This document shows, piece after piece, positions 7,496-30,771 of a stretch of 64,000 bases of DNA. The notes below the pieces were generated by a model. The model saw only the letters and a program-made list of their open reading frames with translations. It ran no database searches and was not told where the DNA came from. The stretch is from an uncultured Gammaproteobacteria bacterium (GTDB lineage: Bacteria; Patescibacteriota; Microgenomatia; UBA10105): NCBI GenBank assembly GCA_964412165.1, contig CAYPMW010000001.1, positions 16,316 to 80,315 of the forward strand. Reading direction: 5' to 3'. The stretch's first letter is position 1, and every line of letters starts with the position of its first letter. The position numbers were made by a program, and so were the translations under genes.

Positions 7496-8329
7496 ATGAA
7501 ATGTAGTGTAATCATACCAGTTTATAACGAGGCATCCGTAATTCTCGATTGTTTACAGTCACTCATTAAACAAACGGTCAAAGCTGAAATTGTAGTAGTG
7601 GATGACGGGTCAACTGATCAAACATCCTTACTTATTAACCAAATTGAAAGATATCTTCCGCTGAAATATCTAACACAAAAGCACCGTGGTCCCGGGGCCG
7701 CTAGAAATTTAGGTGTAATAAATGCGATGGGTAACATACTGGTATTTGTTGATGCCGATATGACTTTTGCTCCTGATTTCATTGAAGATCTTATTGCACC
7801 AATAATTCAAAGTAATACTAAAGGGACTTTTACCACCGAAGAGTTCGTTTCAAATTGGGGAAATATATGGGCGCGATGTTGGAATTTTAATAATAATTTA
7901 TCCGGTAAAAAACGACTTCCTGATAATTATCCTAATACTGCACCGGTTTTTAGAGCGATACTCAAAAGTGAATTTATAAAGGTTCAGGGATTTGATGAAG
8001 AGTCGGGTTGGATTGATGATTGGACGCTTTCGACGAAACTAGGATATAACTCTGTAGCAACAAAGGCTATTTGTTATCATAAGAATCCTGATAATTTACA
8101 CGAGGTTTTCAATCAGGCTATATGGATTGGTAAAAATGAAAATATATCGGGAGATTTAGTGAAAATTATTACAAATGTTCTGCGGTATAATCCAGCAGCA
8201 AGTGTAATGGCCGGGGTGATAAAAATGATACGGTTTAAAGCGCCTGCTTTCGTAATTTTTAAAATTATATATGATCTCGGAATTTTGGTTGGGATATTAA
8301 AAAGTTTTACGGGAATACGATATAGATAA
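7496..8329 (+). CDS. GT2 glycosyltransferase
   Basis: CSVIIPVYNE...VVVDDGSTDQT...VFVDADM are the classic GT2 N-terminal motifs. Confidence 0.75.
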   Translation: MKCSVIIPVYNEASVILDCLQSLIKQTVKAEIVVVDDGSTDQTSLLINQIERYLPLKYLTQKHRGPGAARNLGVINAMGNILVFVDADMTFAPDFIEDLIAPIIQSNTKGTFTTEEFVSNWGNIWARCWNFNNNLSGKKRLPDNYPNTAPVFRAILKSEFIKVQGFDEESGWIDDWTLSTKLGYNSVATKAICYHKNPDNLHEVFNQAIWIGKNENISGDLVKIITNVLRYNPAASVMAGVIKMIRFKAPAFVIFKIIYDLGILVGILKSFTGIRYR

Positions 8330-9720: not shown

Positions 9721-10432
9721 GAAATTGTTGGGAATCTACCGCTGGCACCCGACAATCGCCCTTCGTTATCTGCCTATTGTTGATGAAATTAAGTCATTAT
9801 CTCTTGAGAATTCTGATATTTTGGAGGTTGGTTCAGGAGGGTTGGGGATTACACCTTACATAAGAAAAAAAGTTATTGGCATTGATGTAGAATTTTCTCC
9901 TCCAATTCACGAGAATTTAATACCTGTAAAAGCTTCAGCGATACGTATACCGTTTAAGGATGATGCATTTGACGTAGTGATTTCAATAGACATGCTCGAA
10001 CATATTGAGGAAAATTACCGCAGGCAAGCAATATTCGAACTACTTAGAGTAACCAGGAAACTATTATGCATCGCAGTTCCTTGCGGGCAGCTATCTCAAA
10101 AACAGGATAGTGAATTAGCTTCTGTATATAAAAAACTACTTAAAAAAGAATTTAATTTTTTTGCAGAACATGAAACATTAGGTCTGCCGGATAAAGACTG
10201 GATAGTCAGTGTAATACATGAAGAAAGCCAAAAACTACAAAAGCAGATTAAACTTAAAACCAACGGGTTTTTAAACTTGGGTTTGCGGTATTTTTTGATG
10301 CGGGGGTGGATATCAAACAATCCATTCGTAAATGTTATTTTCCGGAAAGTTTTACTTATTTTTATACCCTTAATGAGACGATATAATCACGAACCCACTT
10401 ATCGGCAGCATTTTTTTGTTACAATAGGATGA
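9695..10432 (+). CDS. Class I SAM-dependent methyltransferase
   Basis: Motif I LEVGSGGLGI and the post-I acidic residue IGIDVE, plus AFDVVISIDMLEHIEE. The start is set at an internal ATG (MKKLL); the track ORF starts at 9647 and overlaps the upstream gene. Confidence 0.65.
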   Translation: MKKLLHTIEKLLGIYRWHPTIALRYLPIVDEIKSLSLENSDILEVGSGGLGITPYIRKKVIGIDVEFSPPIHENLIPVKASAIRIPFKDDAFDVVISIDMLEHIEENYRRQAIFELLRVTRKLLCIAVPCGQLSQKQDSELASVYKKLLKKEFNFFAEHETLGLPDKDWIVSVIHEESQKLQKQIKLKTNGFLNLGLRYFLMRGWISNNPFVNVIFRKVLLIFIPLMRRYNHEPTYRQHFFVTIG

Positions 10433-11721
10433 TGTTTAGGAAATTAATCGTCCACGGTTTGGCGTTGAGCACTTCAAAAACTGCACAAAATCTTTACTGG
10501 GTTTTTGCCGGAAATGGATTTCTCATTGTGCTTACTTTCTTTGCCACCATTCTTGTAGCTAATTCTGTTTCTAAAGCTGATAATGGGATTTTTTTAGCCC
10601 TTTTGACGCTAGCAAATCTTTTGTCCGAATTAGGCGAGGCAGGTCTTGGATCATCGTTGTCAAGTTTCATCCCCGGGTTGTTACTCATACCAAGCAGTCA
10701 AAATCAACGTGAGGCTAGAACATACTTATCTACCGCATTTAAACTGGAGGTATTTATAAGTTTAATTCTCGGGTTTGGCGTACTCGTTCTTTCATTTCCA
10801 TTATCACGTTGGATTTTTGCTGGTACAAACCCAGTACATGTAATCTTTACAGGGTTAATTACTTCCGTACTCGTGCTGTTTGGTTTTTCCAATTTCGCTC
10901 TTTCTGCATATAAAAAATTCCGGGAAGTAGCGATGATGAATATATTTTACAGTGTAATACGATTAGTGTTGTTGGTATTATTCGCTTTTCTATTCAAACT
11001 TTCAGTGCTTTCCATCCTTATAATCTATCTTCTATCATTTGGCTTTGGATGGATTATTTCCATAATGCTAATTAATAAACAATTTATATTTGAAAAAGCT
11101 TCAAAAGCACATGCTTTGAAACTTATTAAATTTTCAAGTTTACTTGCGATCCAAAAAATCTTTATATCTATATCGAGCCGGTTAGATCTTCTAATGCTCG
11201 TGCCACTCTCAAGTGCAGTAGAAGCAGGAATATATGGTATAGCACAACGTTTTGTACTTATTTATCCCGTAATTATTGGAAGTTTGGGCCAAGTTTTGGC
11301 GCCTCAGTTTGCTGAATTTGCAAAAGGTCATCAGGCAATGCAATTTTTTAAAAAAACTGGAATAGTGATCACGCTGCTACTTATTTCAGAGCTTTTATTT
11401 TATATATTTGCAGAACCTTTAATGTCTCTATTAGTACCAAAATATCAGGAATCAATTCCAGTGTTTCGAGGTTTACTAATCGCCATTACTGGATTTATTA
11501 TTGCGACACCTTTTACTTCATTTCTGATATACACTCTAAAAAAAACGCACGTTACTACTTTTGCCTCGTTTATACAACTGTTCATAATATTTTTATTTAA
11601 TATCTATTTCATACCGAAATATGGAAGATTTGCTCCAGCCATAGGAATTGGAATAGGAAATGTAGTCAGTTGTTTGATTGTAATTGGTGCGAGTGTGTAT
11701 TACTTAGGTAAAGAATCATGA
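10429..11721 (+). CDS. Polysaccharide/oligosaccharide flippase (MOP superfamily, Wzx-like)
   Basis: 430 aa with about 12-14 hydrophobic helices and no soluble domain. It sits inside the glycosyltransferase island. Confidence 0.5.
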   Translation: MMFRKLIVHGLALSTSKTAQNLYWVFAGNGFLIVLTFFATILVANSVSKADNGIFLALLTLANLLSELGEAGLGSSLSSFIPGLLLIPSSQNQREARTYLSTAFKLEVFISLILGFGVLVLSFPLSRWIFAGTNPVHVIFTGLITSVLVLFGFSNFALSAYKKFREVAMMNIFYSVIRLVLLVLFAFLFKLSVLSILIIYLLSFGFGWIISIMLINKQFIFEKASKAHALKLIKFSSLLAIQKIFISISSRLDLLMLVPLSSAVEAGIYGIAQRFVLIYPVIIGSLGQVLAPQFAEFAKGHQAMQFFKKTGIVITLLLISELLFYIFAEPLMSLLVPKYQESIPVFRGLLIAITGFIIATPFTSFLIYTLKKTHVTTFASFIQLFIIFLFNIYFIPKYGRFAPAIGIGIGNVVSCLIVIGASVYYLGKES

Positions 11722-12836
11722 GAGTTGCGATTGATATATCACAAATTGCTTATACAGGTACTGGAATAGAAACTTATACTCGACAGTTAGTAATATCACT
11801 CATGCGTACACATCCAGAGGTTAATCTGATATTATTTGGATTCTCTTTGCGTCAGCATAAAAAATTAACAGATTTTTTAGACCTATTATCAAATGATTTT
11901 GTTAGAGAATCAGCGAAAATATTTTGGCTGCCATCAACAGTTCTCTCATTACTGTGGAACCGTGTACATCGAATTCCAATTGAAACTTTCATCAATCATG
12001 TGGATTTGGTTCATACCTCCGATTGGACTGAACCACCAAGTCATATGCCAAAGGTTACTACTATTCATGATCTCATGATTTTTAAGTATCCAGAAAATTT
12101 TCCCTCAGCAATTATTGATAATCATAAGGCGAAATTATTTTGGGTGAAAAAAGAAAGTAAACTCGTGATTGCGGATTCAGAAAGCACAAAACGAGATATA
12201 ATTGAATATTTGCAGATTCCCGAAAGTAAAATTAGGGTCATATATCTTGGTGTGGATGCTCAATTCTTTCCTCAAACTTCTGAATCAGTCCTCAGGATAA
12301 AAAAACGATATGGGATAAGGAAAGATTATTTATTATGCGTTGGGACTCAAGAACCTAGAAAAAATTTATTTCGTATAGCTCAAGCGTTTAAACAATTAAA
12401 CAGTCATGCTATAGAATTAATAATAGTGGGTAATCCAGGTTGGGGTAATCCTATTAGAGGTAATGAAAATATTAAAGTAGTTGGATATGTAGAGAACAAA
12501 GATTTAGTTTCGCTATACTCGGGAGCAATCGCTTTTATATATCCTTCTTTATATGAAGGTTTCGGTTTACCGCTGCTTGAAGCTATGGCATCAGGGACTC
12601 CGGTATTAACTTCAAATCGTGGTAGTTTAGCAGAAATTGCTGGGAATTTTGCGCATACTATTAATCCAGATCAGACTGAGGATCTGGCCAGCGGAATAAA
12701 GTTTTTGGTCGATATGCCCGAATCAAGAAGAAAAGAAATGATACAAAAGGGAGTACATCATGCTCGGACTTTCACGTGGGAAAAGACTGCTGAGCAATTA
12801 TATCATGTATATCAAGAAATAGTAGAAGGGCTATAA
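11718..12836 (+). CDS. GT4 glycosyltransferase
   Basis: The EGFGLPLLEAMASGTPVLTSNRGSLAEIAG motif. Confidence 0.75.
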   Translation: MRVAIDISQIAYTGTGIETYTRQLVISLMRTHPEVNLILFGFSLRQHKKLTDFLDLLSNDFVRESAKIFWLPSTVLSLLWNRVHRIPIETFINHVDLVHTSDWTEPPSHMPKVTTIHDLMIFKYPENFPSAIIDNHKAKLFWVKKESKLVIADSESTKRDIIEYLQIPESKIRVIYLGVDAQFFPQTSESVLRIKKRYGIRKDYLLCVGTQEPRKNLFRIAQAFKQLNSHAIELIIVGNPGWGNPIRGNENIKVVGYVENKDLVSLYSGAIAFIYPSLYEGFGLPLLEAMASGTPVLTSNRGSLAEIAGNFAHTINPDQTEDLASGIKFLVDMPESRRKEMIQKGVHHARTFTWEKTAEQLYHVYQEIVEGL

Positions 12837-13930
12837 TGTACATAGGAATCGATGCATATGAAGCGAATACTCAGAAACGAGTAGGTATTGGTCAATATGC
12901 ATATCAGCTATTAGTGGAACTGTATCAGACAGATAATAAAAATTCCTACAGATTATTTTTACCTGATAAGCCTCTTTCTGATTTGCCACCGTCCAGATCC
13001 AATTGGAGTTACATAGTTGGAACACCCGGAAAATTCTGGACAATTCACCAATTACCACAACTTCTTAAAAATACTCCAGTTGATCTATTTTTTTCTCTTA
13101 CGCATTATATTCCATGGTTTACAAATATACCTAAAATCTTTTCGATAATGGATCTATCATATATTCATTATCCCTGGATGTTTAATATAAAGGATTATTT
13201 TCAATTACGATATATGACTCACCATTCGGTGATGCATGCACAGAAAATTGTTACCATTTCCCAATTTTGTAAAAGTGAAATAATCAAATTCTATTCATTT
13301 CCAGAAAACGATATAATCGTAATTTACCCCGGGTTATCGAAACTACCAAATTTGTCACCACACGAAATGAGAGTTTTTTTTGATAAATATGATATTTCGA
13401 AAAAATATATCTTATTTGTGGGAACAATTCAGCCGCGGAAAAATATTGTCAGATTAATTGAAGCATACAATAAACTTAATAAAGATATTCAATTAGTAGT
13501 AGTTGGAAAATTGGGCTGGAAATATAAGCCAATTCTGAATGCAATGAATACTAGTTCTAAAAGAGATCAAATATTGATTTTGGATTACGTCAGTTCTCCG
13601 CAGCTGCGATTATTATATGAACATGCTGAGTGTTTCGTATTGCCGTCGCTATATGAAGGATTTGGAATTCCTGTCCTTGAGGCGATTCAGTATGGATGTC
13701 CAATAGTTGTATCAAAACGTTCTAGTTTACCTGAAGTAGCGGGTGAAGCAGGAATCTATATCGATCCTGAAAATAGCGACGATATTGCGCATGGGCTTGA
13801 GATTGCTTTACAATTAAATCCGGAGGAAAAAAATGTGCTGATCAAAAAGGGGCGTGAGCATATAAAAAAATTTAGTTGGAAGTTAAATGGTAATCAATTA
13901 CTTAATTTGTTTAATACTTTTGTATATTAA
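12836..13930 (+). CDS. GT4 glycosyltransferase
   Basis: The EGFGIPVLEAIQYGCPIVVSKRSSLPEVAGEAGIYIDPEN motif. Confidence 0.75.
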   Translation: MYIGIDAYEANTQKRVGIGQYAYQLLVELYQTDNKNSYRLFLPDKPLSDLPPSRSNWSYIVGTPGKFWTIHQLPQLLKNTPVDLFFSLTHYIPWFTNIPKIFSIMDLSYIHYPWMFNIKDYFQLRYMTHHSVMHAQKIVTISQFCKSEIIKFYSFPENDIIVIYPGLSKLPNLSPHEMRVFFDKYDISKKYILFVGTIQPRKNIVRLIEAYNKLNKDIQLVVVGKLGWKYKPILNAMNTSSKRDQILILDYVSSPQLRLLYEHAECFVLPSLYEGFGIPVLEAIQYGCPIVVSKRSSLPEVAGEAGIYIDPENSDDIAHGLEIALQLNPEEKNVLIKKGREHIKKFSWKLNGNQLLNLFNTFVY

Positions 13931-13945
13931 TAGTTTTAAAGGTTT

Positions 13946-14539
13946 ATGAAAGATCGTATGGGACGAGACTTGACGACACAGGAAGTCATTCAAAAAGTTA
14001 TCCAAAGGATAAAATGGATACTTTTAGATATTGAACTTATGTTTTTAACGATAACTGGTTATATACCCATTCATACTATTCGGAAAATTATTTACCGATT
14101 AGCAGGTGTGCGGATAGGTAAAGGATCAACATTACATATGTGGGCAAGATTTTATAATCCTCGTAATATTACCATTGGTGAAGGATCAATAATCGGAGAT
14201 CATGCGATGCTTGATGGAAGAGAAGAAATAAAGATCGGTAGTCATGTCGATATTACATCATGGGTAATGATTTATAACGGAAAGCATGATTATGACAGCG
14301 AGGATTTTCACTCAGTATTTGCTCCAGTGAAAATTGAAGATTATGTGTTTATCGGCCCACGAGTCATCATACTTCCCGGCATAACTGTGGGGAAAGGGGC
14401 AATTATTGGTGCAGGTGCGGTGGTTACAAATAATGTGGAAGCTTATACCATTGTAGGCGGAGTTCCAGCAAAGACCATTGGTATACGAAAAGTAAAAGAT
14501 CTTCATTACCGACTAGGGTGGGCACGATTATTCCAATAA
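13946..14539 (+). CDS. Sugar O-acetyltransferase, left-handed beta-helix (hexapeptide repeat) family
   Basis: Tandem hexapeptide repeats (IGEGSIIGDHAMLDG...VFIGPRVIILPGITVGKGAIIGAGAVV), as in WcaF/WbbJ/maltose O-acetyltransferase-like enzymes. Confidence 0.7.
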   Translation: MKDRMGRDLTTQEVIQKVIQRIKWILLDIELMFLTITGYIPIHTIRKIIYRLAGVRIGKGSTLHMWARFYNPRNITIGEGSIIGDHAMLDGREEIKIGSHVDITSWVMIYNGKHDYDSEDFHSVFAPVKIEDYVFIGPRVIILPGITVGKGAIIGAGAVVTNNVEAYTIVGGVPAKTIGIRKVKDLHYRLGWARLFQ

Positions 14540-14634
14540 GTAAATAGAGTAATTTATCTGCTCAAATGAAGCTAAACAAGAGTGATTATAAAGCCTATAT
14601 TAATTTTCATTGTACAACTTTGACCGTCAATCCG

Positions 14635-14643
14635 TGGTATAAT
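14635..14643 (+). promoter_or_regulatory. Extended -10 promoter element TGgTATAAT, giving a nearly leaderless mRNA for the 1048-aa gene
   Basis: TG at 14635-36 and TATAAT at 14638-43. The ATG is at 14655, so the predicted transcription start leaves a leader of about 5 nt or less. Confidence 0.35.
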
Positions 14644-14654
14644 ACCGTACTTAA

Positions 14655-17600
14655 ATGGTGATGGGGTTAAAAAAAATTCTTGAATGGACTGATACCAATC
14701 TCCTGTTCGTTTTGACAGGATTTTTACTTGCTTTTATCCCTCTTTATCCTAAATTACCTCTTTTTGATGTGATTCCAGGCTACATAGTCAGAGTCAGATT
14801 AGAAGACTTTTTAGTTTTATTAGTAATGGTAATCTGGATTATTCAGATGGTGCGTAAAAAAGCCTCATTTGGACCAAATCCATTAAGTATACCGATACTA
14901 ACGTATCTCCTAATCGGTTTCTTGTCTACATTATCGGCGATTTTTATTACTAAAACGGTTCCGTACGACGTGTTTCATATTGGAAAACTCTACCTTCATT
15001 TTTTCAGAAGAATAGAATATTTCTCTTTATTTTTCATTTTTTTCACTGCTGTCAAAACGAGAAGACAGTTAAAGATTTATCTGTTAATCATCGTTTTAAC
15101 CGTAATTTCTGTTTCGTTGTATGGGTATGGTCAAAAATATTTATACTGGCCAGCTTTTTCAACTATGAATAGAGAGTATGCAAAAGGTTGGGCGCTTTAT
15201 TTAACACAACATGCGCGTGTCATATCCACCTTTGGAGGACATTATGATTTAGCAGCATTTGTAATGATAGTTTTAATTTTATTATGGTCGATTTTGTATG
15301 GGTTAAAAAACGTGTATGCCAAAATCGGAGTCCTATTAGGAATAGCTACTTCATTTTGGTTACTGATTCTAACTGCTTCAAGAACTTCCTTCATTGCCTA
15401 TATGGTAGGAATTACTCTACTTTTTTTCCTATGGACGCTACGTAAAGGATTAAAATGGGCGCTTATTCGTTGGGGTATAGCGGTATTTTTAAGTATGACC
15501 ATTATGCTCACACTTGGGGATTTATCTGAGCGATTCACCAAATTATTAAAAATTGAAGCTCGTCTGAGTGGTATTAAATCATTATTATTTAAACCTCTCG
15601 GAAAACCACCAAGTGGCAACCAAGTCGTGTTTTTGGAAAATAATATTGAAGCAGTTACATCTAAAAGTGATTTTCCACCGCTTCCTGTAAGACCAGGTGA
15701 TGTGATTGAAGATTTTCCAGATGGCATAGAAGCATCAAAAACTGCATCAGGATCAATTACCTTTACTGAGCGTCCACGAACTTATTCTAAAACTGCATTA
15801 GTATATGATCTTTCTACAGGAATTCGATTGGATGCTCTTTGGCCAAGAGCTATTGAAGGATTTAAAAGAAATCCGATATTGGGCTCAGGATATTCAACAC
15901 TCACAAAGATACAAATACAAGAATTTACCGAAGCTGAATCCACTGACAACGATTACCTGCGGGCTTTAGGCGAGACCGGTTTACTTGGTTTTTTTGCTTT
16001 TGGATGGATCTTGTTTACTATTATAATTACGATCTGGAAAAAAAGCCCTTATATTGAAGATAGCGCACTTTATTCTATCTTAGTTGGATTACTAGCCATA
16101 ATAATTGGGTTATTGGTAAACGCAATATATATTGATGTTTTTGAGGCATCAAAAGTAGCATTTTTCTTTTGGGCACTAACGGGTATAATCCTGGGAGGAT
16201 TAAAACTAGTTAAGGAGAATGTTAATATTCGTAGGCACAATTCTCTAGGTATTTCAGATTTAGGACTAATCATCTTTTCAAAATTTATCCAATTAATTAA
16301 ACTAGAAAAAACATATATCATATTATTAGTACTTTTAGCTTTTGTTTTACGTAACTATAATATTAATGAACCACTTGCAGACTGGCACTCATGGCGGCAA
16401 GCAGATACTTCTGCCGTTACAAGAAATTATGTTAGATATGGAATTGATCCGCTCTTTCCTCGTTATGATGACGTCTCATCCTTACAATCTGGTAGACCTA
16501 ATCCTCAGGGGTACCGATTTGTTGAATTCCCGATATACAATATTTTGTCAGTTATAAGCGATAATTTTTTTCCCAATTCAGTTGAATATGCAGGTAGATT
16601 AACTTCAGTTATCGCATCTTTAGGTACACTCATATTGCTATTTAAACTTACACGTAAATACTATTCATTTAAAGTGGCTTTTCTAACCGGCTTTTTTTTC
16701 GCCGTTCTCCCGTACAATATATATTGGTCACGAGTCATACTTCCTGAACCAACATTAGTTTTTTTCACGACAGCCTTACTTTATTGGTTTGACTCATGGC
16801 TTGATACAAATAAACATCGCTATTTAATCATCGCTTCAATAATGGGCGCATTCGCTTTGCTAATTAAATTTACAACCCTTTTTTTTATAGTACCTATACT
16901 TTATATGTGCTGGAAGAAGTGGGGTATAGGATTATTTAGCAAATTATCATTGTATATTTTCGCTATTGCCATAATTACCCCATTTATTCTGTGGCGATTA
17001 CATATTTCCCAATTTCCTGAAGGGATTCCAGCTTTTATGTGGTTATTTAATGGAAATAATATTCGGTTTAAGGGGGCATTTTTTTGGTGGCTATTTGCAG
17101 AAAGGATTGATAAACTAATTTTAGGTGGATGGGGGGTAGTGCTCTTGGTATTGGGATTAGTTAGAAAATCGAGTTCTTTTAACTCACCGAGTAAATTAGG
17201 CTTTCCAACTGACTCAAAACAAAACCTATTTTATTATTGGTTACTTGGACTACTTCTCTATTTAGTTATATTCGCGACAGGAAATGTACAGCATGATTAT
17301 TATCAAATTATTCTTGTTCCAATCATATCATTTTTTCTTGCTTTAGGTGCGGATCTCTTGTTAACGAATAATTCTCTTGTATCGAGTGCTGTATCGCGAA
17401 TCGTTTTTTTCGTAATAGTACTATTTATGCTTATGTTTGGATGGTATCAAGTTAGAGATTTTTATAACATAAATCATCCAGAAATTATTGAAGCAGGAGC
17501 AGAGTTTAACAAATTAGTAGATAATGATCGTGTGAAAGTGATTGCTCCCTATGGTGGAGATACTGCATTTTTGTATCAAACAAATCGTATGGGATGGCCG

Positions 17601-17801
17601 ATTATGGAAGGATCAATCGACGATATGATTGCCAAGGGGGCACATTATTATATCAGTGTCAAGTCAGACGACTTGACAAATGAATTAGATGCAATTGCCA
17701 GTGAGGGGACAGATGTGAAACACCAATTTAAACTAATTAAGAAGACAAATTCATATATAATTATCCAACTGGTACCGGACAAATTACTACCCAAAAAATA
17801 A
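14655..17801 (+). CDS. Fusion protein: N-terminal O-antigen ligase/polymerase-like (Wzy_C) domain plus C-terminal GT39 (PMT/ArnT-like) GT-C domain
   Basis: N-terminal half: many helices, the LTASRTSF motif, a large loop with ALWPRAIEGFKRNPILGSGYST and DNDYLRALGETGLLGF (Wzy_C/WaaL/PglL-like). C-terminal half (from about aa 530): a polytopic GT-C domain with the first-loop motif EPLADWHSWRQADTS. Confidence 0.5.
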   Translation: MVMGLKKILEWTDTNLLFVLTGFLLAFIPLYPKLPLFDVIPGYIVRVRLEDFLVLLVMVIWIIQMVRKKASFGPNPLSIPILTYLLIGFLSTLSAIFITKTVPYDVFHIGKLYLHFFRRIEYFSLFFIFFTAVKTRRQLKIYLLIIVLTVISVSLYGYGQKYLYWPAFSTMNREYAKGWALYLTQHARVISTFGGHYDLAAFVMIVLILLWSILYGLKNVYAKIGVLLGIATSFWLLILTASRTSFIAYMVGITLLFFLWTLRKGLKWALIRWGIAVFLSMTIMLTLGDLSERFTKLLKIEARLSGIKSLLFKPLGKPPSGNQVVFLENNIEAVTSKSDFPPLPVRPGDVIEDFPDGIEASKTASGSITFTERPRTYSKTALVYDLSTGIRLDALWPRAIEGFKRNPILGSGYSTLTKIQIQEFTEAESTDNDYLRALGETGLLGFFAFGWILFTIIITIWKKSPYIEDSALYSILVGLLAIIIGLLVNAIYIDVFEASKVAFFFWALTGIILGGLKLVKENVNIRRHNSLGISDLGLIIFSKFIQLIKLEKTYIILLVLLAFVLRNYNINEPLADWHSWRQADTSAVTRNYVRYGIDPLFPRYDDVSSLQSGRPNPQGYRFVEFPIYNILSVISDNFFPNSVEYAGRLTSVIASLGTLILLFKLTRKYYSFKVAFLTGFFFAVLPYNIYWSRVILPEPTLVFFTTALLYWFDSWLDTNKHRYLIIASIMGAFALLIKFTTLFFIVPILYMCWKKWGIGLFSKLSLYIFAIAIITPFILWRLHISQFPEGIPAFMWLFNGNNIRFKGAFFWWLFAERIDKLILGGWGVVLLVLGLVRKSSSFNSPSKLGFPTDSKQNLFYYWLLGLLLYLVIFATGNVQHDYYQIILVPIISFFLALGADLLLTNNSLVSSAVSRIVFFVIVLFMLMFGWYQVRDFYNINHPEIIEAGAEFNKLVDNDRVKVIAPYGGDTAFLYQTNRMGWPIMEGSIDDMIAKGAHYYISVKSDDLTNELDAIASEGTDVKHQFKLIKKTNSYIIIQLVPDKLLPKK

Positions 17802-17802
17802 T

Positions 17803-18999
17803 ATGAAAGTCCTCATGTTAACGCCCTACTTACCCTATCCACTTATCTCAGGTGGTCAAATCAGATCCTATAATTTATTAAAAAATTTAGCTTTTAAACA
17901 TAATATTACTTTAGTAGCGCTTATTAAAAATGAAGTAGAAAAACAATATATCTCACATATTCAAGAATTCTGTGAAAAAGTAATTGTGGCGAAGCGTCCA
18001 GAGAAACCTTGGACTTTTTTGAATATTATTAAAACCGGTTTGGGATTCTATCCTTTTCTAGTGGTTAGAAATTTTTCAAAAGACGCGAAGAATGCAGTGA
18101 TCAATGAACTTAACACAGATAAATTTGATTTAATACATGCTGAAACGTTTTATGTCATGCCGCATATTCCCAATACAAGTATACCTATACTTCTGGTAGA
18201 GCAAACCATAGAGTATTTAGTTTATCAACATTTTGTTGATACGATGAAAAGTATTCCACTGAGATTCATTTTCTCACTAGACGTATTCAAAATTCGTTTT
18301 TGGGAAGAATTTTTTTGGAAACGGGCGGCTCGGATTGTCGCTATGTCGAAAGCTGATAAGCATGTTATGACTGTACATCTTAAGGATCTTCATGTTTCAA
18401 TAGTTCCAAATGGTGTGGATATTACATTTTTCAAATATCGGAAAAAGTATGTTTCAAAAAACCCAAAAATTCTATTTGTTGGTAATTTCAAATGGTTACA
18501 AAACAGAGAAGCTGTAAATGTATTAGTAAACGAAATCTGGCCTATCATATCATCTAAAATATTAAATGCAGAGTTGTGGATAGTCGGTAAATTTCCCACG
18601 AATGAAATTCTTTCAATGCAGAATGACCGGATTAAAATTTCTGATAATATTCATGATATTCGTTTTGCATACCATACTTCTGATGTATTACTCGCTCCTA
18701 TTTATGGTCCAGGTGGGACACGATATAAAATACTTGAGGCAATGGCATCAGGTATTCCCGTAGTGACAACTCCACAAGGAATTGAAGGACTCGATGTGCG
18801 GGACGAAAAAGAAGCGATAATCCGTAACAACGTTACAGACTTAGCACGTGCCACCATAAAACTTTTAACTAATGATTCTCTTTACCAAATGATATCTATT
18901 AACTCAAATGAGTTTGTACGCAACACGTACAATTGGGCAATTATTGCTCAAGCTCTGGACGAGATTTATAACGAGGTGGCATATGACAAAAAAAATTGA
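17803..18999 (+). CDS. GT4 glycosyltransferase
   Basis: C-terminal motif KILEAMASGIPVVTT with two conserved glutamates, on a GT-B-like scaffold. Confidence 0.65.
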   Translation: MKVLMLTPYLPYPLISGGQIRSYNLLKNLAFKHNITLVALIKNEVEKQYISHIQEFCEKVIVAKRPEKPWTFLNIIKTGLGFYPFLVVRNFSKDAKNAVINELNTDKFDLIHAETFYVMPHIPNTSIPILLVEQTIEYLVYQHFVDTMKSIPLRFIFSLDVFKIRFWEEFFWKRAARIVAMSKADKHVMTVHLKDLHVSIVPNGVDITFFKYRKKYVSKNPKILFVGNFKWLQNREAVNVLVNEIWPIISSKILNAELWIVGKFPTNEILSMQNDRIKISDNIHDIRFAYHTSDVLLAPIYGPGGTRYKILEAMASGIPVVTTPQGIEGLDVRDEKEAIIRNNVTDLARATIKLLTNDSLYQMISINSNEFVRNTYNWAIIAQALDEIYNEVAYDKKN

Positions 19000-19867
19000 T
19001 TTGTCTATAGTTATCGTCTCTCATAATACACGATTACTCCTCAAACGATGTTTAGATACCATGTATTCCAGCTTGTCTAGAGCTCCTTTTACCTATGAAG
19101 TAATCGTTGTTGAAAATAATTCGACTGATGGCACCTTAAAAATGCTCAAATCTTATAAATCAGTAAAAATTATCCTCAACCCCTCAAATTATGGGTATGG
19201 GAAAGCAAATAATCAAGGGATCATGTCTGCAAGAGGCGAAGTGATATTACTTTTAAATTCAGATATTGAAGTACTGAATAATGCAATAGGAGTATTATTT
19301 GCATTTTTTTTGGCACAACCGCAAAATTCTTTCGTAGGAGGGAAATTATTTAATTTAGATTTGACACCACAACCATCATGCGGACCGGCATATTCGTTAA
19401 AGAATATTTTTGTTGCCTTATTTTTAAAGGGTGATTTTAGAGGTAATACAAGATATTCACCAGACACTACGACTGAAGTTGACTGGATTATGGGGTCTTG
19501 CATGATGTTTCATAAATCAATAACAAAGGAAGTGGGTTATTTTGATGAAAACATTTTTATGTATATGGACGAAATAGATTTACAGTATAGAGCCAAAAAA
19601 TTGGGATATAGAATAATTTTTTACCCCGAAGCCAAATTTATACATGTTGGATCTGGAAGTAGTAAAGGGCGTGAACTTCCTATCTTAAATGTTTTTCGCG
19701 GTTTTATTTATTTTTATAAAAAACATTATAATATAGTACATAATCTTATTTTAAGAGTACTATTAATACTCAAATCAAGTATAGCAATCGTGTTTTTTTC
19801 CATATTGAATAATAAATATAATCGAACTATGTATTTAAAAGCTTTAAAAATAGCGTTATCTACGTGA
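18983..19867 (+). CDS. GT2 glycosyltransferase
   Basis: LSIVIVSHN...VIVVENNSTDGT...YGYGKANNQG, followed by a DxD-type motif. The start is taken at the internal ATG (MTKKIDL). Confidence 0.7.
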   Translation: MTKKIDLSIVIVSHNTRLLLKRCLDTMYSSLSRAPFTYEVIVVENNSTDGTLKMLKSYKSVKIILNPSNYGYGKANNQGIMSARGEVILLLNSDIEVLNNAIGVLFAFFLAQPQNSFVGGKLFNLDLTPQPSCGPAYSLKNIFVALFLKGDFRGNTRYSPDTTTEVDWIMGSCMMFHKSITKEVGYFDENIFMYMDEIDLQYRAKKLGYRIIFYPEAKFIHVGSGSSKGRELPILNVFRGFIYFYKKHYNIVHNLILRVLLILKSSIAIVFFSILNNKYNRTMYLKALKIALST

Positions 19868-20766
19868 AAATTGAAGTTTCTATCATTATTCTTAATTATA
19901 ACTCTCAGGATGTTATCCTGAATTGTCTTACTTCAATTCAGAAACATTATAGATCAAAGTTGAAAGATACTTATGAAATTATTGTGGTTGATAATCATTC
20001 GAGCGATAATTCGGTTAAAAATATAAAAGCATTATATCCAGGTGTATTAATTATTGAGAATGATTCGAATGTAGGATTTTCTAAGGGCAATAACCAAGGA
20101 GTTAAAAAAGCCCATGGAAAATATGTATTGTTTTTAAATCCCGATACGCTATTTACTGAAAATGCTCTCGGTCCACTCGTGACATTTATGGATAACCACA
20201 AAGACGTTGGAGTAGCTACTTGCAAAGTTGTATTACAAAATGGGAAGATTGATGACGCATGTCACCGAGGCTTTCCCACTCCTTGGAGAGCATTGACCCA
20301 TTTTACAGGTTTAGGTGTTATTTTTCCGAATTCTATGCTTTTTAACGGATACCATCTCGCATATAAAAGTATTCGAATACCCCATGAGATAGATGCATGC
20401 GCTGGTGCTTTTCTCCTTATTAGGTCAAGTATTGGTAGAAGGTTGCGTTGGCTTGACGAAGATTATTATTGGTATGGTGAAGATTTAGACCTGTGTTACC
20501 GCGTAAAACAATTAGGATACAAAGTGATGTTTCTCCCTCAATATAAAATCCAGCATATAAAAGGAATATCGAGCGGGATAAAAAAACATTCAAAAAAATT
20601 TTCAATAGCCTCAAAACAAACACAGATCACCGCAACCAAATCTCGGTTTGAAGTGATGAGATTATTTTATAATAAACATTACTTAAATTATTATCCTAAT
20701 TGGTTAACAAAATTAGTATTTCTTGGGATTGATATGAAAGAACAGCTAACTCGGTGGAAATTATGA
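19864..20766 (+). CDS. GT2 glycosyltransferase
   Basis: VSIIILNYN...IIVVDNHSSDNS...VGFSKGNNQG...NPDT. GTG start overlapping the upstream stop. Confidence 0.7.
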   Translation: MKIEVSIIILNYNSQDVILNCLTSIQKHYRSKLKDTYEIIVVDNHSSDNSVKNIKALYPGVLIIENDSNVGFSKGNNQGVKKAHGKYVLFLNPDTLFTENALGPLVTFMDNHKDVGVATCKVVLQNGKIDDACHRGFPTPWRALTHFTGLGVIFPNSMLFNGYHLAYKSIRIPHEIDACAGAFLLIRSSIGRRLRWLDEDYYWYGEDLDLCYRVKQLGYKVMFLPQYKIQHIKGISSGIKKHSKKFSIASKQTQITATKSRFEVMRLFYNKHYLNYYPNWLTKLVFLGIDMKEQLTRWKL

Positions 20767-21860
20767 GAATTGGTATCGATGCACGATTATGGAATGAAAC
20801 TGGTGTGGGGAGGTACATCAGAGCATTAGTAAAATATTTACAAAAAATTGATGATAAAAATGAATATATACTGTTTGTTAAAAAAAATGAATATGATTCT
20901 TTACAATTGACAAATGCTCGATGGCGGCTGTTGCTTGCAGATATAAACTGGCATACACTTTCCGAACAATTTGATATACCAAAATTATATATGCAAGCCC
21001 ACCTAGACCTGGTGCATATCCCTTATTTTTCTGTTCCTTATTTTATTTCAAATTCTTTTATTGTCACCATTCATGATTTGACAATATCCAATTTTGCCAC
21101 AGGAAAAGCGACTACCAAACCATGGCCTATATATTTATTAAAAAGACTAGGATATCAGTTTGTACTTTCACATGCACTTTCTAAAGCCAAGCTCATCATC
21201 ACTGTGTCACAAACAGTCAAAAATCAGATTCTTGATACTTATCCGGTAAAGGCGGATAAAATACATGTCACCTATGAGGCGGGAGAACTGGAATATAATT
21301 CAAAAGGCAATACTCGTGTTCCTAAAAAATACATCCTGTACGTCGGTAATGCACATCCACATAAAAATTTAGAACGATTACTGGGTGCATTTAATACATT
21401 AGCTCACATTAATAAAGATTTAAAATTGGTGCTTATTGGAAAACACGATTATTTCTACCAGAGACTCATGAAAAAAATCTCGGACAGGAAGTTACCAGGT
21501 GTAATATTTGTAGGCACAGTTAATAATGGTGAATTGAATATTTGGTATAAACATGCTTTGTGTCTTGTATTTCCTTCTCTATCAGAAGGATTTGGCATCC
21601 CAGGACTTGAGGCAATGGGTTGTGGATGTCCAGTGGTTGCCTCTGATCTACCAATCTTTCATGAAATATATCATGACGCGGCACTTTATTTTGATCCGGG
21701 AGACACTCTTGATATTTCAAATTCTATTCAATCACTGATCGTTGATCAAAAAAAACGCTCAGCCTTAATCAGTAAGGGTAAGCAAATCTTCAAGCTGTAC
21801 AGTTGGGAAAAAATGGCGAGAGAAACTAATATTTTATATGAAAGTAGCACTCGTTTATGA
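20763..21860 (+). CDS. GT4 glycosyltransferase
   Basis: N-terminus MRIGIDAR; C-terminus SEGFGIPGLEAMGCGCPVVASDL. There is an ATGA overlap with the upstream gene. Confidence 0.7.
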   Translation: MRIGIDARLWNETGVGRYIRALVKYLQKIDDKNEYILFVKKNEYDSLQLTNARWRLLLADINWHTLSEQFDIPKLYMQAHLDLVHIPYFSVPYFISNSFIVTIHDLTISNFATGKATTKPWPIYLLKRLGYQFVLSHALSKAKLIITVSQTVKNQILDTYPVKADKIHVTYEAGELEYNSKGNTRVPKKYILYVGNAHPHKNLERLLGAFNTLAHINKDLKLVLIGKHDYFYQRLMKKISDRKLPGVIFVGTVNNGELNIWYKHALCLVFPSLSEGFGIPGLEAMGCGCPVVASDLPIFHEIYHDAALYFDPGDTLDISNSIQSLIVDQKKRSALISKGKQIFKLYSWEKMARETNILYESSTRL

Positions 21861-22941
21861 TCACGTTAATAAAATAGGAGGAGCTGAAAGAATTTTAATA
21901 TTGCTTCATGAAATTTATCCCGAAGCTCCTCTTTATACCGCTGTATATAATAAAAGCGATGCCCAGTGGGCCTCTGTATTTAAAGTTACACCCTCCTTCA
22001 TGCAGTATTTACCCTTTGCAAAATCTAATCATGAGTTTTACCCTTGTTTGCCAATTTTTGCGTTTGAACATTTCCGTTTTGATTCATACGACGTGATAAT
22101 ATCGGTAACATCTGCTGAAGCAAAATGTATTATTACTTCGCCAAATACACTCCATATATGCTATTTACTGACCCCCACTAGATTTATTTGGACTCATTTT
22201 ACTGATTATTTTAAAAATCCATATCTCAAAACTCTCGGATTACCTTTTGTCTCGGCGATGCGTATATGGGATCAATTCGTCTCTCGGCGTCCAGATAAGT
22301 ATGTAGCCATTTCTCAAACAGTAGCCAAACGCATTGAAAAATACTATAATATTTCCCCGCTAATAGTTTATCCCGGCGTAGATGCTGATAGTTATCGGCC
22401 TCTGAACATGCAAAAAAAATCAGGTAAATACTTTCTGATCGTTTCACGTTTAGTTTCGTACAAGCGGATTGATATTGCCATAGAAGCATGTAATGCACTA
22501 CAAATCCCGTTGGTTATTATAGGTAAAGGGAAGGATTATAATGCTTTGCACTCTAGAGCTGGTAGGACAATCTTATTTGTTCATAGCTTGACCGATGATG
22601 AGCTTATTTCGTATTATCAAAATTGTCGTGCATTGATTTTTCCGCAGGAGGAAGATTTCGGTTTAACCGCAGTTGAAGCACTAGCCTGTGGAAAACCGGT
22701 AATCGCATTTCGGAGCGGGGGAGCACTGGAAATAATATCCGAGGGGCTTACGGGAGAATTTTTTTCCCCTCAGACAGCGGAGGCGTTAATAGAAGTTTTG
22801 AAACATTTTGATGAAAAAAAATACGCTGCGTCAGCATGCCGGAATCGTTCACTACGATTTTCAAAAAACCTATTTGTCAAGGAATTTTCGCAGCTGGTGA
22901 AGGAAGAATGGAATCGATTTAAAGATTCCTTATATATATGA
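21838..22941 (+). CDS. GT-B (GT4-like) glycosyltransferase
   Basis: N-terminus MKVALVYDHVNKIGGAERILI; C-terminus EDFGLTAVEALACGKPVIA. Confidence 0.55.
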   Translation: MKVALVYDHVNKIGGAERILILLHEIYPEAPLYTAVYNKSDAQWASVFKVTPSFMQYLPFAKSNHEFYPCLPIFAFEHFRFDSYDVIISVTSAEAKCIITSPNTLHICYLLTPTRFIWTHFTDYFKNPYLKTLGLPFVSAMRIWDQFVSRRPDKYVAISQTVAKRIEKYYNISPLIVYPGVDADSYRPLNMQKKSGKYFLIVSRLVSYKRIDIAIEACNALQIPLVIIGKGKDYNALHSRAGRTILFVHSLTDDELISYYQNCRALIFPQEEDFGLTAVEALACGKPVIAFRSGGALEIISEGLTGEFFSPQTAEALIEVLKHFDEKKYAASACRNRSLRFSKNLFVKEFSQLVKEEWNRFKDSLYI

Positions 22942-24020
22942 AAACTGTTATTTTTGCGGGTGGGGTAGGCACCAGATTATGGCCACTGTCTCGCAAACAT
23001 TCTCCGAAGCAATTTGAAAAAATCATCGGTGATAAATCAACACTGCAGCTTGCTGCACACCGACTTCAACCAGATTTCAATTGGTCAGATATATATGTTT
23101 CAACTGGTATTTCCTATATCAATATCGTAAAAACGCAACTTCCTCAGATTCCTCCGGGTAATATTATTGGGGAGCCGAAAATGCGTGATGTGGGACCGGC
23201 GGTAGGGCTGATGACCTCGATTCTAGCAAAAGAATCACCCTATGAGCCTATGTTGATTTTATGGAGCGATCATCTCGTAAAAAATGAAGAACTTTTTCGA
23301 AAAATACTGTCTGTAGCTGGTAATTTTATTAAAAAGGATTATGAAAAAATAATTTTTATTTCACAAAGACCGCGGTTTGCGAGTGAAAATCTGGGATGGA
23401 TTGAATACGGTGACATCGTATCTACTGTGCAGGGTATACATTTTAATACATTTATCGATTTTCAATACCGTCCTGATGCTGCTACAGCACAAAAGTATTT
23501 TAAAAGCGGTCAACATGCATGGAATTTAGGCTATTTTATTACTACTCCAAAATATTTATGGGATCAATATGAGCGTTTTGCACCAAATCTCCATAAAAAC
23601 ATTCAGAAGATACAAAGAGCATGGGGTACTGATAATTTCAGTGATACCATGGATACAATTTATCCACAGCTTGAGAAAATCTCCTTCGATAATGCCATAC
23701 TTGAAAAACTTAATCCTTCTCAGGCACTGGTGATTTCAGAAAATATAGGATGGAGTGATATAGGTGCATGGGAGGCGCTAAAAGAAGCGCAAGAAAATAC
23801 AGCTGATAAAAATGTGACACAGGGGAAGGTGCTTCTCACTGATACCAGAGATTCTTTAATTTATAATTTTACAGATCAAACTGTAGTGACTATCGATTTG
23901 GACGCTGTTTTGGTGATAAATACGGACGATATAATTCTAGTATGTAAAAAATCTTCCGTACCCAAAATCAAAAAGTTAGTAGAAAGTTTTTCGAACACAG
24001 AGAACGAAAAGTTCACCTAA
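22938..24020 (+). CDS. Mannose-1-phosphate guanylyltransferase-like NDP-sugar pyrophosphorylase
   Basis: N-terminus MKTVIFAGGVGTRLWPLSRKHSPKQF (G-rich nucleotidyltransferase loop); length and layout are ManC/CpsB-like. Confidence 0.6.
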   Translation: MKTVIFAGGVGTRLWPLSRKHSPKQFEKIIGDKSTLQLAAHRLQPDFNWSDIYVSTGISYINIVKTQLPQIPPGNIIGEPKMRDVGPAVGLMTSILAKESPYEPMLILWSDHLVKNEELFRKILSVAGNFIKKDYEKIIFISQRPRFASENLGWIEYGDIVSTVQGIHFNTFIDFQYRPDAATAQKYFKSGQHAWNLGYFITTPKYLWDQYERFAPNLHKNIQKIQRAWGTDNFSDTMDTIYPQLEKISFDNAILEKLNPSQALVISENIGWSDIGAWEALKEAQENTADKNVTQGKVLLTDTRDSLIYNFTDQTVVTIDLDAVLVINTDDIILVCKKSSVPKIKKLVESFSNTENEKFT

Positions 24021-24656
24021 ATGTATACTTTAATAAAACGTGTAATTGATATTTTAGGAGGAGTTCTATTGACGATTATTTTTTCCATACCCGCACTAAT
24101 AGTCGTAATAGCCATTAAATTTGATTCACCAGGTCCTGTGCTTGCGGATACTCCTGAACGTGTAGGTCAAAATGGAAAATTGTTTAAATTATTTAAATTT
24201 CGTTCAATGATAATGAATGCTCATCATCTTCTCCATAACGACCCTAAATTTAATAAATTATATAAACAGTATAAAAAAAATAGTTATAAACTTTATCAAG
24301 ACCCCAGAGTTACACAGGTGGGAAAGTTTATCAGAAAACACTCGCTTGATGAATTACCTCAGCTATTCAATGTTATCAGAGGGGATATGAGTCTTGTTGG
24401 GCCAAGGCCATATTATCCAGATGAATTAGTCGAACAGCAAAAAAAATATCCTCACACTCGAGAATTAGTCGAAATTGTTTTATCTGCAAAACCAGGGATT
24501 ACTGGTGAATGGCAGGTATCAGGGAGAAGTGAAGTCAATTTCGATAAGCGGATTAAAATTGATGCAGAATATGTGAAACGAAAATCTCTCCTACATGATC
24601 TTAAGATTTTACTCAAGAGTCCATTAGCCATGATTACAGGAAAAGGAGCTGTTTGA
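24021..24656 (+). CDS. Priming phosphoglycosyl transferase (bacterial sugar transferase family, small PglC/WbaP-C type)
   Basis: A single N-terminal helix followed by KLFKLFKFRSM...DELPQLFNVIRGDMSLVGPRP, the signature of undecaprenyl-phosphate sugar-1-phosphate transferases. Confidence 0.75.
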   Translation: MYTLIKRVIDILGGVLLTIIFSIPALIVVIAIKFDSPGPVLADTPERVGQNGKLFKLFKFRSMIMNAHHLLHNDPKFNKLYKQYKKNSYKLYQDPRVTQVGKFIRKHSLDELPQLFNVIRGDMSLVGPRPYYPDELVEQQKKYPHTRELVEIVLSAKPGITGEWQVSGRSEVNFDKRIKIDAEYVKRKSLLHDLKILLKSPLAMITGKGAV

Positions 24657-24703
24657 ATTATTAGACCGTATAGATTATATTTATATTTTTGTAATGCGAA
24701 TGT

Positions 24704-30601: not shown

Positions 30602-30743
30602 GTCTCAGTCTCAAGTCTTAGAGGACCAAATAATTCTTGGGAATTTTCTCCAGCCTAATTATAACGTACTTTTTTTTACTCTACATATAGTGTTTCTTCA
30701 GTGGTGAAAACCCCTTGACTTTATTCACGTAAAAAAGGCAAAA

Positions 30744-30771
30744 TGGTGTAAGGTGGTGTAAAATGGTGAAA
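30744..30771 (+). repeat. Three phased direct repeats TGGTG(T/A)AA with 10-bp spacing; candidate MraZ operator
   Basis: TGGTGTAA at 30744-51, TGGTGTAA at 30754-61 and TGGTGAAA at 30764-71. The last repeat overlaps the mraZ ATG at 30763. Confidence 0.45.

Follow-up and report, generated by a model that had tools for sequence, protein, structure and literature searches.

The O-antigen ligase WaaL (CAZy GT121; PDB 7TPG/7TPJ) acts on a lipid A-core acceptor and, like PglL and PglS, relies on a catalytic His (PMC10920833 for the family comparison); in PglS this residue is H324, and the H324A variant is inactive. The acceptor-activating His of WaaL is H313 in C. metallidurans and H338 in the E. coli translation used here. 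At the same position, SEDS proteins and the inverting polymerases of clan GT-C1 typically carry Asp or Glu, with His being the mark of ligases (PMC10920833), and a Wzy_C domain is frequent in beta-linking Wzy polymerases (PMC12502699). The functions of the essential EL1 Asp and of the other site residues of ArnT-type enzymes have also been described (PMC7801869). WadA of Brucella and Mesorhizobium provides a precedent for a bimodular enzyme, in which a GT121 ligase is joined to a GT25 domain.

We analysed a stretch of DNA of 64,000 nucleotides (the window) that encodes a protein to which these are the closest known systems. Its N-terminal half (N-module) resembles the inverting Wzy polymerases and SEDS proteins (clan GT-C1: GT125-129, GT119) in having Asp/Glu at the acceptor-activating position and one to two conserved Arg residues, and the polymerases also in its Wzy_C domain and in being encoded by the sole Wzy-like gene of a Wzx/PGT cluster. 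The polymerases (GT125-129) are expected to have a Wzz/PCP co-polymerase, however, and none lies within 10 kb of 80 N-module loci. Unlike WaaL, the N-module has Asp in place of the catalytic His, carries extra invariant external motifs, sits beside or is fused with a GT-C_A enzyme, and occurs in ultra-small bacteria (CPR) that reportedly lack a Gram-negative envelope. It shares with PglL, PglS and PilO the Wzy_C superfamily, Und-PP-glycan donors and the make-up of the cluster, but has neither their catalytic His nor a linked acceptor protein. The C-terminal half (C-module) matches ArnT (GT83) and PMT (GT39) in fold, in the Pfam families PMT_2/PMT, in the EL1 Asp, in counterparts of E84, D158 and K203 and in a C-terminal external alpha/beta domain; it departs from them in T585, F625 and a distinctive ADWHSWRQADT loop, and has no significant sequence match to a solved GT-C enzyme. 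As in WadA, a membrane module of the Wzy_C superfamily is covalently joined to a glycosyltransferase for the same product, and all fused forms fall into a single clade. Whereas the partner in WadA is described as a globular GT25 domain, the C-module is a second polytopic GT-C enzyme, which would act outside the membrane with a lipid-phosphate sugar.

The fusion gene and its split relatives

The fusion gene (14655..17801, + strand) is one uninterrupted ORF of 1048 residues plus a stop codon, as described in the initial annotation, and the four motifs quoted there lie where they had been placed: LTASRTSF at residues 239-246, ALWPRAIEGFKRNPILGSGYST at 394-415, DNDYLRALGETGLLGF at 431-446 and EPLADWHSWRQADTS at 572-586. 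Each half scores in Pfam when run separately. The N-terminal half matches Wzy_C at 229-449 (E 9.5e-14, 51.9 bits, cut-off 31.7; 58.8 bits for the isolated N-module region), and the C-terminal half matches both PMT_2 at 643-780 (E 4.6e-12, 46.9 bits, cut-off 26.1) and PMT at 624-767 (E 1.5e-10, 41.5 bits, cut-off 22.7). The proposed architecture, a Wzy_C-superfamily module followed by a PMT_2/ArnT-like GT-C module, both predicted to face outward, is borne out. The best 120 database homologues all measure 992-1081 aa, with 95-100% query coverage and 49-63% identity; because these are full-length and come from many independent assemblies, an artificial joining of two genes by a frameshift or assembly error is excluded. 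More than 120 distinct full-length homologues of the fusion occur, mostly in Candidatus Gottesmanbacteria. The 1048-residue membrane protein is thus genuine, and it combines two distinct sugar-transferring enzymes that depend on lipid carriers. A promoter and terminator scan around the gene gave nothing above chance. The architecture had been put forward as undescribed, and we found no paper on the Wzy_C/PMT_2 pair, whether in CPR bacteria, Saccharibacteria included, or elsewhere, nor on a GT-C_B module covalently joined to a GT-C_A module; since coverage of the literature was incomplete, this is absence of evidence only, and in public data such proteins are common under generic names.

Whether orthologues are split or fused was surveyed in 80 related genome loci across Patescibacteria, and both arrangements occur. 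The modules are fused in 17 loci, and in 60 they are separate genes that lie side by side in the same direction, among them one (L044) in which the contig end cuts the C-module after 58 residues; the remaining three loci are truncated before the site. An N-module without a C-module was found in none of the 80, and the two-enzyme module is present in at least 581 species-level genomes. In the fusion, the modules are connected by a K/R-rich cytoplasmic linker (aa 517-550; 16203..16304, +) with an amphipathic helix, as judged from the helices of the model. In the split relatives, the end of the N protein is K/R-rich, and its stop codon is met or overlapped by the start of the C gene, with a start/stop overlap of 4-8 nt at those junctions that read clearly. 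The fusion came from the joining of two genes that occur across Patescibacteria as obligate neighbours. It is specific to one lineage, the clade of fused forms, and the real unit of interest is the conserved pair, not the fusion as such.

Folds and active sites of the two modules

Searches of PDB sequences returned nothing for the full-length profile A1 (E ≤ 1), the N-module profile A2 (E ≤ 10) or the C-module profile A3 (E ≤ 10), which leaves fold comparison as the basis of every structural assignment. The AlphaFold2 model of the fusion protein has a mean pLDDT of 77.6 and a pTM of 0.67, and is poor in the external loops of the N-module (pLDDT <50 at 163-194 and 290-430). The N-module (aa 1-516; 14655..16202, +), a predicted Und-PP-glycan transferase, is shown by the model to adopt a 12-TM WaaL/Wzy-type (GT-C_B) fold, with the polytopic layout of WaaL and SEDS proteins and the long external loop near the C-terminus (aa 288-432). 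Its best structural match is the WaaL ligase, a comparison that is biased because no solved clan GT-C1 polymerase appeared among the fold matches. R243 (codon 15381..15383, +) aligns with R215 of E. coli WaaL, an essential Arg of that enzyme; both hhalign and hmmsearch pair LTASRTSF with LTQTRATLL. R391 (15825..15827, +) probably corresponds to R288, the second conserved Arg in E. coli WaaL, by a motif-level match (IRLDALWP versus GARLAMYE) within the Wzy_C profile match. A conserved Arg for binding the diphosphate of Und-PP is accordingly represented by R243 from two methods and by R391 at motif level. D431 (15945..15947, +) occupies the place of the catalytic His of ligases: it and E. coli WaaL H338 both map to Wzy_C profile position ~130, and the ungapped register agrees at N, A, G and G. 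R243, R391 and D431 are each invariant in 81 of 81 sequences. The extra invariant external motifs are PLYPKLPLFD..GYIVRVRLED, STMNRE and STFGGHYD. Weak matches to a repeat-unit polymerase model (TIGR04370, 21.8 bits with a cut-off of 40) and to TuaE (16 bits with a cut-off of 400) stay below threshold.

The membrane part of the C-module (aa 551-937; 16305..17465, +) is shown by the model to have the GT-C_A (ArnT/PMT/STT3-type) fold with 11-13 TM helices, in keeping with its matches to Pfam PMT_2 and PMT, and is followed by the external alpha/beta domain (aa 938-1048; 17466..17798, +). In the fold comparison, ArnT, STT3 and ALG enzymes match it equally as well as PMTs, and its likeness to the STT3/PglB/AglB fold is generic. 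A WWDYG motif in the C-terminal domain is the hallmark of the STT3/PglB/AglB (GT66) family; WWD[YFW]G is absent from the translation of the fusion, in which the sole WW lies in FFWWLFAERI, in a membrane-proximal loop. Alignment of profile A3 to E. coli ArnT by hhalign, which is weak (E 0.016), pairs WRQADT with WQPDET and makes D584 (16404..16406, +) the EL1 Asp, counterpart of ArnT D55 and Pmt1 D77. The same weak alignment points to E624 (16524..16526, +) as the counterpart of ArnT E84 (RFVEFP to RYFEKP), to E698 (16746..16748, +), which is E or D across the family, as that of D158 in EL2 (ILPEP to AVLDP), and to K738 (16866..16868, +) as a candidate for K203 (LLIKF to VMTKG). ArnT K203 is the salt-bridge partner of D158 (PMC7801869; E. 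coli-to-C. metallidurans numbering inferred). R817 (17103..17105, +), in an 'AERI' followed by a hydrophobic stretch, is a candidate lipid-phosphate-binding Arg that matches at motif level the Arg of the 'AERV' motif known from TMTC, STT3 and PglB (PMC7801869). D584, E624, K738 and R817 are invariant in the family. The second acidic residue of the D-E/D-D pair (ArnT E56 position) is replaced by an invariant Thr, T585, and the residue beside E624 is F625 where ArnT has K85, leaving the C-module without the second acidic residue and without a K85-type phosphate contact. Judged from these alignments, the C-module keeps an ArnT/PMT-type active-site set, and the invariant residues on the external loops of each module indicate that both are under selection.

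A syntenic glycan cluster

The pair lies in a cluster with the conserved order GT4-GT4-acetyltransferase-[N][C]-GT4-GT2-GT2-GT4-GT4-ManC-PGT-DUF4012, which adjoins the dcw cell-wall cluster, where a separate FtsW is located. The upstream partners GT4, GT4 and a WcaF-like O-acetyltransferase (11718..14539, +; Pfam, NCBIfam) are kept in 50-55 of 59 split loci and 16 of 17 fused loci. Downstream follow GT4, GT2 (18908), GT2 (19864), GT4 and GT4 (17803..22941, +; Pfam), and both GT2s are kept in every split (59/59) and fused (17/17) locus. The GT2s of the cluster give generic family matches only, with no polyprenyl-phosphate-sugar synthase recognisable among them. ManC, a small Bac_transf priming PGT and a DUF4012 protein, all syntenic, complete the series (22938..26746, +); the role of ManC is GDP-mannose supply. 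A Wzx-type flippase (Polysacc_synt; 10429..11721, +) precedes the cluster in the window, and such a gene occurs within 10 kb of the pair in merely 4 of 17 fused and 5 of 59 split loci. The PGT at 24021 (E 4e-58) and the flippase at 10429 (E 1e-14) had been correctly named beforehand, and the Und-P-dependent setting claimed for the gene is confirmed. Across the 80 loci, neither a Wzz/PCP co-polymerase nor an LCP ligase occurs within 10 kb, and the survey revealed no acceptor-protein gene linked to the pair.

The window's cluster contains no second Wzy-like gene. The ORF at 3873-5078 is unlikely to be an alternative Wzy: it has no Pfam match and resembles another GT-C-type membrane protein. The DUF4012 protein has only one TM helix, at its N-terminus, in contrast to the two-TM topology of PCPs, and was for this reason rejected as a chain-length regulator of the Wzz/PCP kind. 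Descent of the C-module as a recent paralogue of the standalone PMT_2 genes in the window was likewise ruled out, since the similarity is only marginal.

Functional readings of the pair

Most likely, the fusion finishes a conserved cell-surface glycan. Our preferred reading, to which we assign a probability of roughly 0.4, is a two-step enzyme of glycan assembly on the outer face that combines en bloc transfer of an Und-PP-glycan, as Wzy-type polymerisation, with the transfer of a single sugar. The PGT and about eight cytoplasmic GT4/GT2 enzymes of the cluster would assemble on undecaprenyl diphosphate an oligosaccharide that is acetylated and contains mannose, and Wzx would turn it to the outer face. 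In the N-module, R243 and R391 would hold the Und-PP donor while D431, acting as a base, would activate a sugar hydroxyl, so that the glycan would be moved en bloc with inversion. We read this step as Wzy-type polymerisation of the oligosaccharide unit because the residue is Asp and not the ligase His, and because the cluster encodes no Wzy-like protein besides the N-module. With an ArnT-like site (D584, E624, E698, K738 and R817), the C-module would take one sugar from a polyprenyl-phosphate monosaccharide and attach it to this chain, where it could be a branch, a cap or the sugar that serves as acceptor. The two activities would be kept side by side at 1:1 by fusion or, where the genes are split, by coupled translation, and the final acceptor could be a polymer, a lipid or a protein. 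Several observations count against a polymerase. The loci have no Wzz/PCP or LCP nearby (a PCP may be encoded elsewhere in the genome), a unit made by about eight GTs is large for a repeat unit, cross-phylum conservation of the cluster is seen more typically with a defined oligosaccharide or core structure than with a variable polymer, and the nearest solved structure is a ligase, albeit from a biased sample of fold matches. The His/Asp rule itself is a family-level correlation, short of proof.

Some of these observations would suit a ligase logic like that of WadA, in which the C-module sets an acceptor sugar from a polyprenyl-phosphate donor and the N-module ligates the whole Und-PP-oligosaccharide onto it once, without polymerisation; a membrane glycolipid, a wall polymer or a protein-linked sugar could then be the final acceptor. 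The strict pairing or fusion of a Wzy_C-superfamily module with a glycosyltransferase has a parallel in WadA, whose GT25 provides the GT121 ligase with the last sugar of the core, a cluster with PGT, many GTs, Wzx and a Wzy_C protein and devoid of PCP and LCP suits en bloc transfer, and both the conservation of the cluster across phyla and WaaL as best structural match favour it. Yet the ligase catalytic position is Asp, not His, throughout the 81 sequences, no acceptor can be named, and lipid A-core is not expected because of the envelope reported for CPR bacteria; we consider this logic conceivable but doubtful. The initial annotation had proposed a dedicated protein O-glycosylation or S-layer glycosylation step; spelled out, this would be a PglL/PilO-type O-oligosaccharyltransferase (acting on Ser/Thr of pilins or S-layer proteins) joined to a PMT-type O-mannosyltransferase. 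The architecture from which it was drawn stands, but the assignment as O-oligosaccharyltransferase finds no support with D431 at the site of the catalytic His of WaaL, PglL and PglS in 81 of 81 sequences, nor does the dedicated role, as no target-protein gene is linked to the pair and the PMT D-E pair is incomplete, its second residue being an invariant Thr. With ArnT, STT3 and ALG enzymes fitting the C-module no worse than PMTs, protein glycosylation appears unlikely. Finally, one module alone might be catalytic and the other a scaffold or substrate-delivery partner, such as a subunit for binding or recycling the lipid carrier. The Phe and Thr at the ArnT K85 and E56 positions are in line with this, and N-module paralogues fused to Metallophos hint at lipid-carrier handling; nevertheless, acidic and basic residues at the expected active sites are invariant in both modules over large evolutionary distances, which makes a single catalytic module very improbable.

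Little of the CPR/Patescibacteria envelope has been characterised, although it mediates host attachment, and a pair that is always adjacent or fused within a syntenic glycan cluster offers a concrete, testable handle on a conserved surface glycan of these bacteria. The fused form is a natural single-chain construct for studying how Und-PP- and Und-P-dependent steps are coordinated outside the membrane, and the His-to-Asp state of the N-module could be used to test the rule that has been put forward for CAZy clan GT-C1 to tell ligases from polymerases. More tentatively, the pair may be the core of a vertically inherited surface-glycoconjugate pathway of Patescibacteria, in which an Und-PP en bloc transferase and a polyprenyl-P GT-C enzyme work as one machine. 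If so, such coupling would be a mode without prior description that could replace the LCP/PCP machinery of other monoderms, and the pair could make a defining component of the envelope in these episymbionts.

Kindred modules also occur in further fusions. In P0129 a GT2 of the 18908 type is fused to a C-module, which is suggestive, though not proof, of a linked polyprenyl-phosphate-sugar synthase. This GT2+C-module protein and the N-module+Metallophos paralogues point the same way as the two-step assembly reading.

Conserved gene pair and its fusion

The fusion gene (14655-17801, + strand) is an intact ORF encoding 1048 aa. The initial annotation had described a Wzy_C domain joined to a GT39 domain, and the four motifs that it quoted lie at residues 239-246, 394-415, 431-446 and 572-586. 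Each half scores separately in Pfam: Wzy_C matches residues 229-449 (E 9.5e-14), PMT_2 residues 643-780 (E 4.6e-12) and PMT residues 624-767 (E 1.5e-10), all above the gathering threshold, which bears out a Wzy_C module followed by a GT-C module. The sole NCBIfam match, Agl23, falls below threshold. A search of ~5.8 billion proteins returned 1742 hits. The best 120 all measure 992-1081 aa, align over 95-100% of the query with 49-63% identity and in nearly all cases contain both domains; artificial joining of two genes is thus ruled out. Named members of the 120 belong to Candidatus Gottesmanbacteria, Microgenomates or Patescibacteria, with the labels 'glycosyltransferase family 39 protein' or 'O-antigen ligase family protein'. 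A 52-sequence alignment shows invariant residues distributed across both halves.

Four architectures were found among 1.84 billion cluster representatives: the complete fusion, N-modules on their own (~500-570 aa, aligning with residues 3-520), C-modules on their own (~470-500 aa, aligning with residues 551-1040) and long proteins that match the N-module alone and carry a Metallophos domain. N-module relatives occur in at least 581 species-representative genomes. We fetched 80 loci with an N-module profile and located the C-module by tblastn. Both modules share one ORF at 17 loci; at 60, the C-module is the next gene downstream on the same strand, with spacing from a few-nt overlap to a 143-nt gap (including L044, where the contig end cuts the C-module after 58 residues); and at three the contig stops before the C-module site. 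None of the 80 was scored by tblastn as an N-module without a C-module. This answers whether orthologues are split or fused, a point raised initially. Among the split loci are those of Curtiss-, Chisholm-, Beckwith-, Woese- and Pacebacteria, Paceibacterota, Parcubacteria and one TM6 genome. At clearly read junctions, the two genes share 4-8 nt across stop and start (ATGA/GTGA type), a sign that the split genes may be translationally coupled. A neighbour-joining tree of N-modules groups the fused forms in one clade, in which L017 (genuinely split) and L028 (a truncated locus) are the only exceptions; the fusion therefore reflects one lineage-specific event affecting a conserved gene pair.

A literature search found no paper describing the pair or its fusion, and to that extent the architecture is undescribed as first proposed; but the protein families are already known, there is a precedent for a bimodular ligase, and homologues are in databases under generic names. 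The conserved pair and its cluster weigh more than the fusion itself. At two loci (L040 9116-11838 and L041 11604-14308), two tandem C-module paralogues follow the N-module gene. The TM6 locus (L056; CP011212.1, a complete Dependentiae genome) has a split pair nested among Parcubacteria-type sequences, which could reflect horizontal transfer. Many representative MAGs with a CPR-type locus (L006, L011, L012, L016, L019 and L020 among them) are titled 'uncultured Gammaproteobacteria' or 'Pseudomonadales', and these titles look unreliable.

Catalytic residues and topology of the two modules

R243 of the N-module pairs with E. coli WaaL R215 in hhalign and hmmsearch, and R391 matches WaaL R288 at the motif level only. 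On the Wzy_C profile, WaaL 205-354 maps to positions 6-146 and fusion protein residues 229-449 to positions 2-148, placing WaaL H338 (HLHNEIIEAG) and D431 (STDNDYLRALG) at the same position, ~130; this ungapped register also pairs N, A, G and G. All 81 N-modules compared keep R243, R391 and D431 unchanged. At the D431-equivalent position GT121 O-ligases have an acceptor-activating His, whereas SEDS proteins and all inverting clan GT-C1 polymerase families except GT127 have Asp or Glu (Meitil et al. 2024, PMC10920833). PglS requires its His, the H324A variant being inactive, and the Wzy_C domain is common among beta-linking Wzy polymerases (PMC12502699). Because an invariant Asp replaces the catalytic His of WaaL and PglS, the N-module family, as aligned here, lacks the residue diagnostic of ligases and O-OTases and bears the acidic signature of polymerases and SEDS proteins. 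In a paralogous N-module family from outside the window, fused to a C-terminal membrane region (P0136, P0138, P0140 and P0159), Lys replaces Arg at the R243 position and the STDN Asp is kept; with a Metallophos phosphoesterase domain detected in P0136 and P0159, this family may couple an Und-PP-releasing transferase to a phosphatase.

The C-module aligns weakly but coherently with E. coli ArnT (hhalign, E 0.016), pairing WRQADT with WQPDET, RFVEFP with RYFEKP, ILPEP with AVLDP and LLIKF with VMTKG. In this alignment, D584 corresponds to the universal essential Asp (ArnT D55), E624 to E84, E698 to D158 and K738 to K203, whereas ArnT E56, the second acidic residue, and K85, a phosphate contact, are replaced by T585 and F625 (ArnT numbering from 5ezm, roles from PMC7801869). 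R817, the invariant Arg of an 'AERI' motif, resembles at the motif level a lipid-phosphate-binding Arg (PMC7801869), and the WWDYG motif is absent from the fusion protein. From these residues, the C-module looks catalytically competent, yet distinct as a subfamily.

A sequence-based search for solved structures with the protein and its modules gave no match. In the AlphaFold2 model (mean pLDDT 77.6, pTM 0.67), confidence is high for the membrane cores and low for the external loops 163-194 and 290-430 of the N-half. Fold comparison of the C-half scored STT3B at 21.9, Pmt4 and ALG12 at 21.6, ALG9 at 20.4, AglB at 19.3, Pmt2 at 18.7, PglB at 17.1 and ArnT at 15.9; Foldseek ranked ArnT first (E 6e-7, target TM-score ~0.6) and also recovered WaaL (target TM-score 0.65). 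Because so many GT-C_A enzymes match, the modelled C-half is a generic GT-C_A fold, and the more specific GT39 assignment is unjustified. By its helix pattern, the N-module has 12 TM helices with both termini intracellular, followed by a K/R-rich linker (517-550), 11-13 further TM helices and a C-terminal external alpha/beta domain (938-1048). Under the positive-inside rule and the model, this pattern would fit an external position for both catalytic faces, no added junction helix being required.

Gene cluster and predicted function

The core order at 76 informative loci is GT4-GT4-WcaF-like acetyltransferase-[N][C]-GT4-GT2-GT2-GT4-GT4, both GT2s being present at all 76, and ManC, the priming transferase and DUF4012 come after it wherever the contig extends far enough. 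The window's cluster is syntenic as far as RecO in two Gottesmanbacteria assemblies, and the neighbours named initially, a Bac_transf priming transferase (24021) and a Polysacc_synt flippase (10429), are correct. The DUF4012 protein (24704-26746, 680 aa), from a CPR-enriched family (Meheust et al. 2019), combines one N-terminal TM helix with a large external domain; it is the last cluster gene, straight after the priming transferase, wherever the contig reaches. In some lineages a GT2 is joined to the C-module N-terminus, as in P0129, a protein from outside the window whose GT2 domain is closest to that encoded at 18908-19867 of the window (35% identity, 174 bits); such fusions hint that the 18908-type GT2 feeds the GT-C or works alongside it.

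We tentatively favour, at a probability of about 0.4, polymerisation by the N-module plus decoration or priming, because of the Asp signature and because the cluster contains no Wzy-like gene besides the N-module. The N-module would move a flipped Und-PP-glycan en bloc onto a sugar hydroxyl, and the C-module would use a polyprenyl-phosphate donor to attach one sugar to that product. A close rival, by analogy with the bimodular WadA, is that the acceptor sugar is installed first and a single ligation follows. No LCP, Wzz/PCP or GtrA family was seen to recur near the pair. The cluster's many GTs, its conservation across phyla and the missing PCP and LCP speak for this scheme, which we consider somewhat less probable than polymerisation. 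Direct protein O-oligosaccharyltransfer combined with PMT activity, as initially proposed, is weakened by the Asp found in all 81 N-modules where ligases and O-OTases have the catalytic His, and appears improbable.

Surrounding genes

Just before the fusion gene, a 115-nt gap (14540-14654) contains an extended -10-like element, TGGTATAAT, at ~14633-14641; a consensus promoter scan of the upstream region gave nothing above chance. Six further GT-C-type membrane genes inside 30 kb form an unusually dense outer-face glycosylation set: 106-1434(+), 1411-2841(-), 5056-6405(+), 8329-9720(+) and 27376-28551(+), with Pfam matches to PMT, PMT_2 (three genes) and PIG-V-like, and a polytopic 401-aa ORF (3873-5078(+)) that has no Pfam match and resembles GT-C genes. 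Directly downstream of the glycan cluster lies a complete dcw cluster (31323-53696) with its own FtsW, comprising MraW, an FtsI-type PBP, MurE, MurA, a GlmU-like protein, MurF, a DegT aminotransferase, FemAB, MraY, MurD, FtsW, MurG, FtsA and FtsZ; RecO, the PIG-V-like GT-C, an aminoacyl-tRNA synthetase and two short ORFs (30182-31197) stand between the two. At 61943-64000(-), an ORF of 685 aa that reaches the window's last base, and whose start may lie past the edge, combines a GH130 (mannoside phosphorylase-like) match with a Peptidase_C39_2 domain, an odd pairing.
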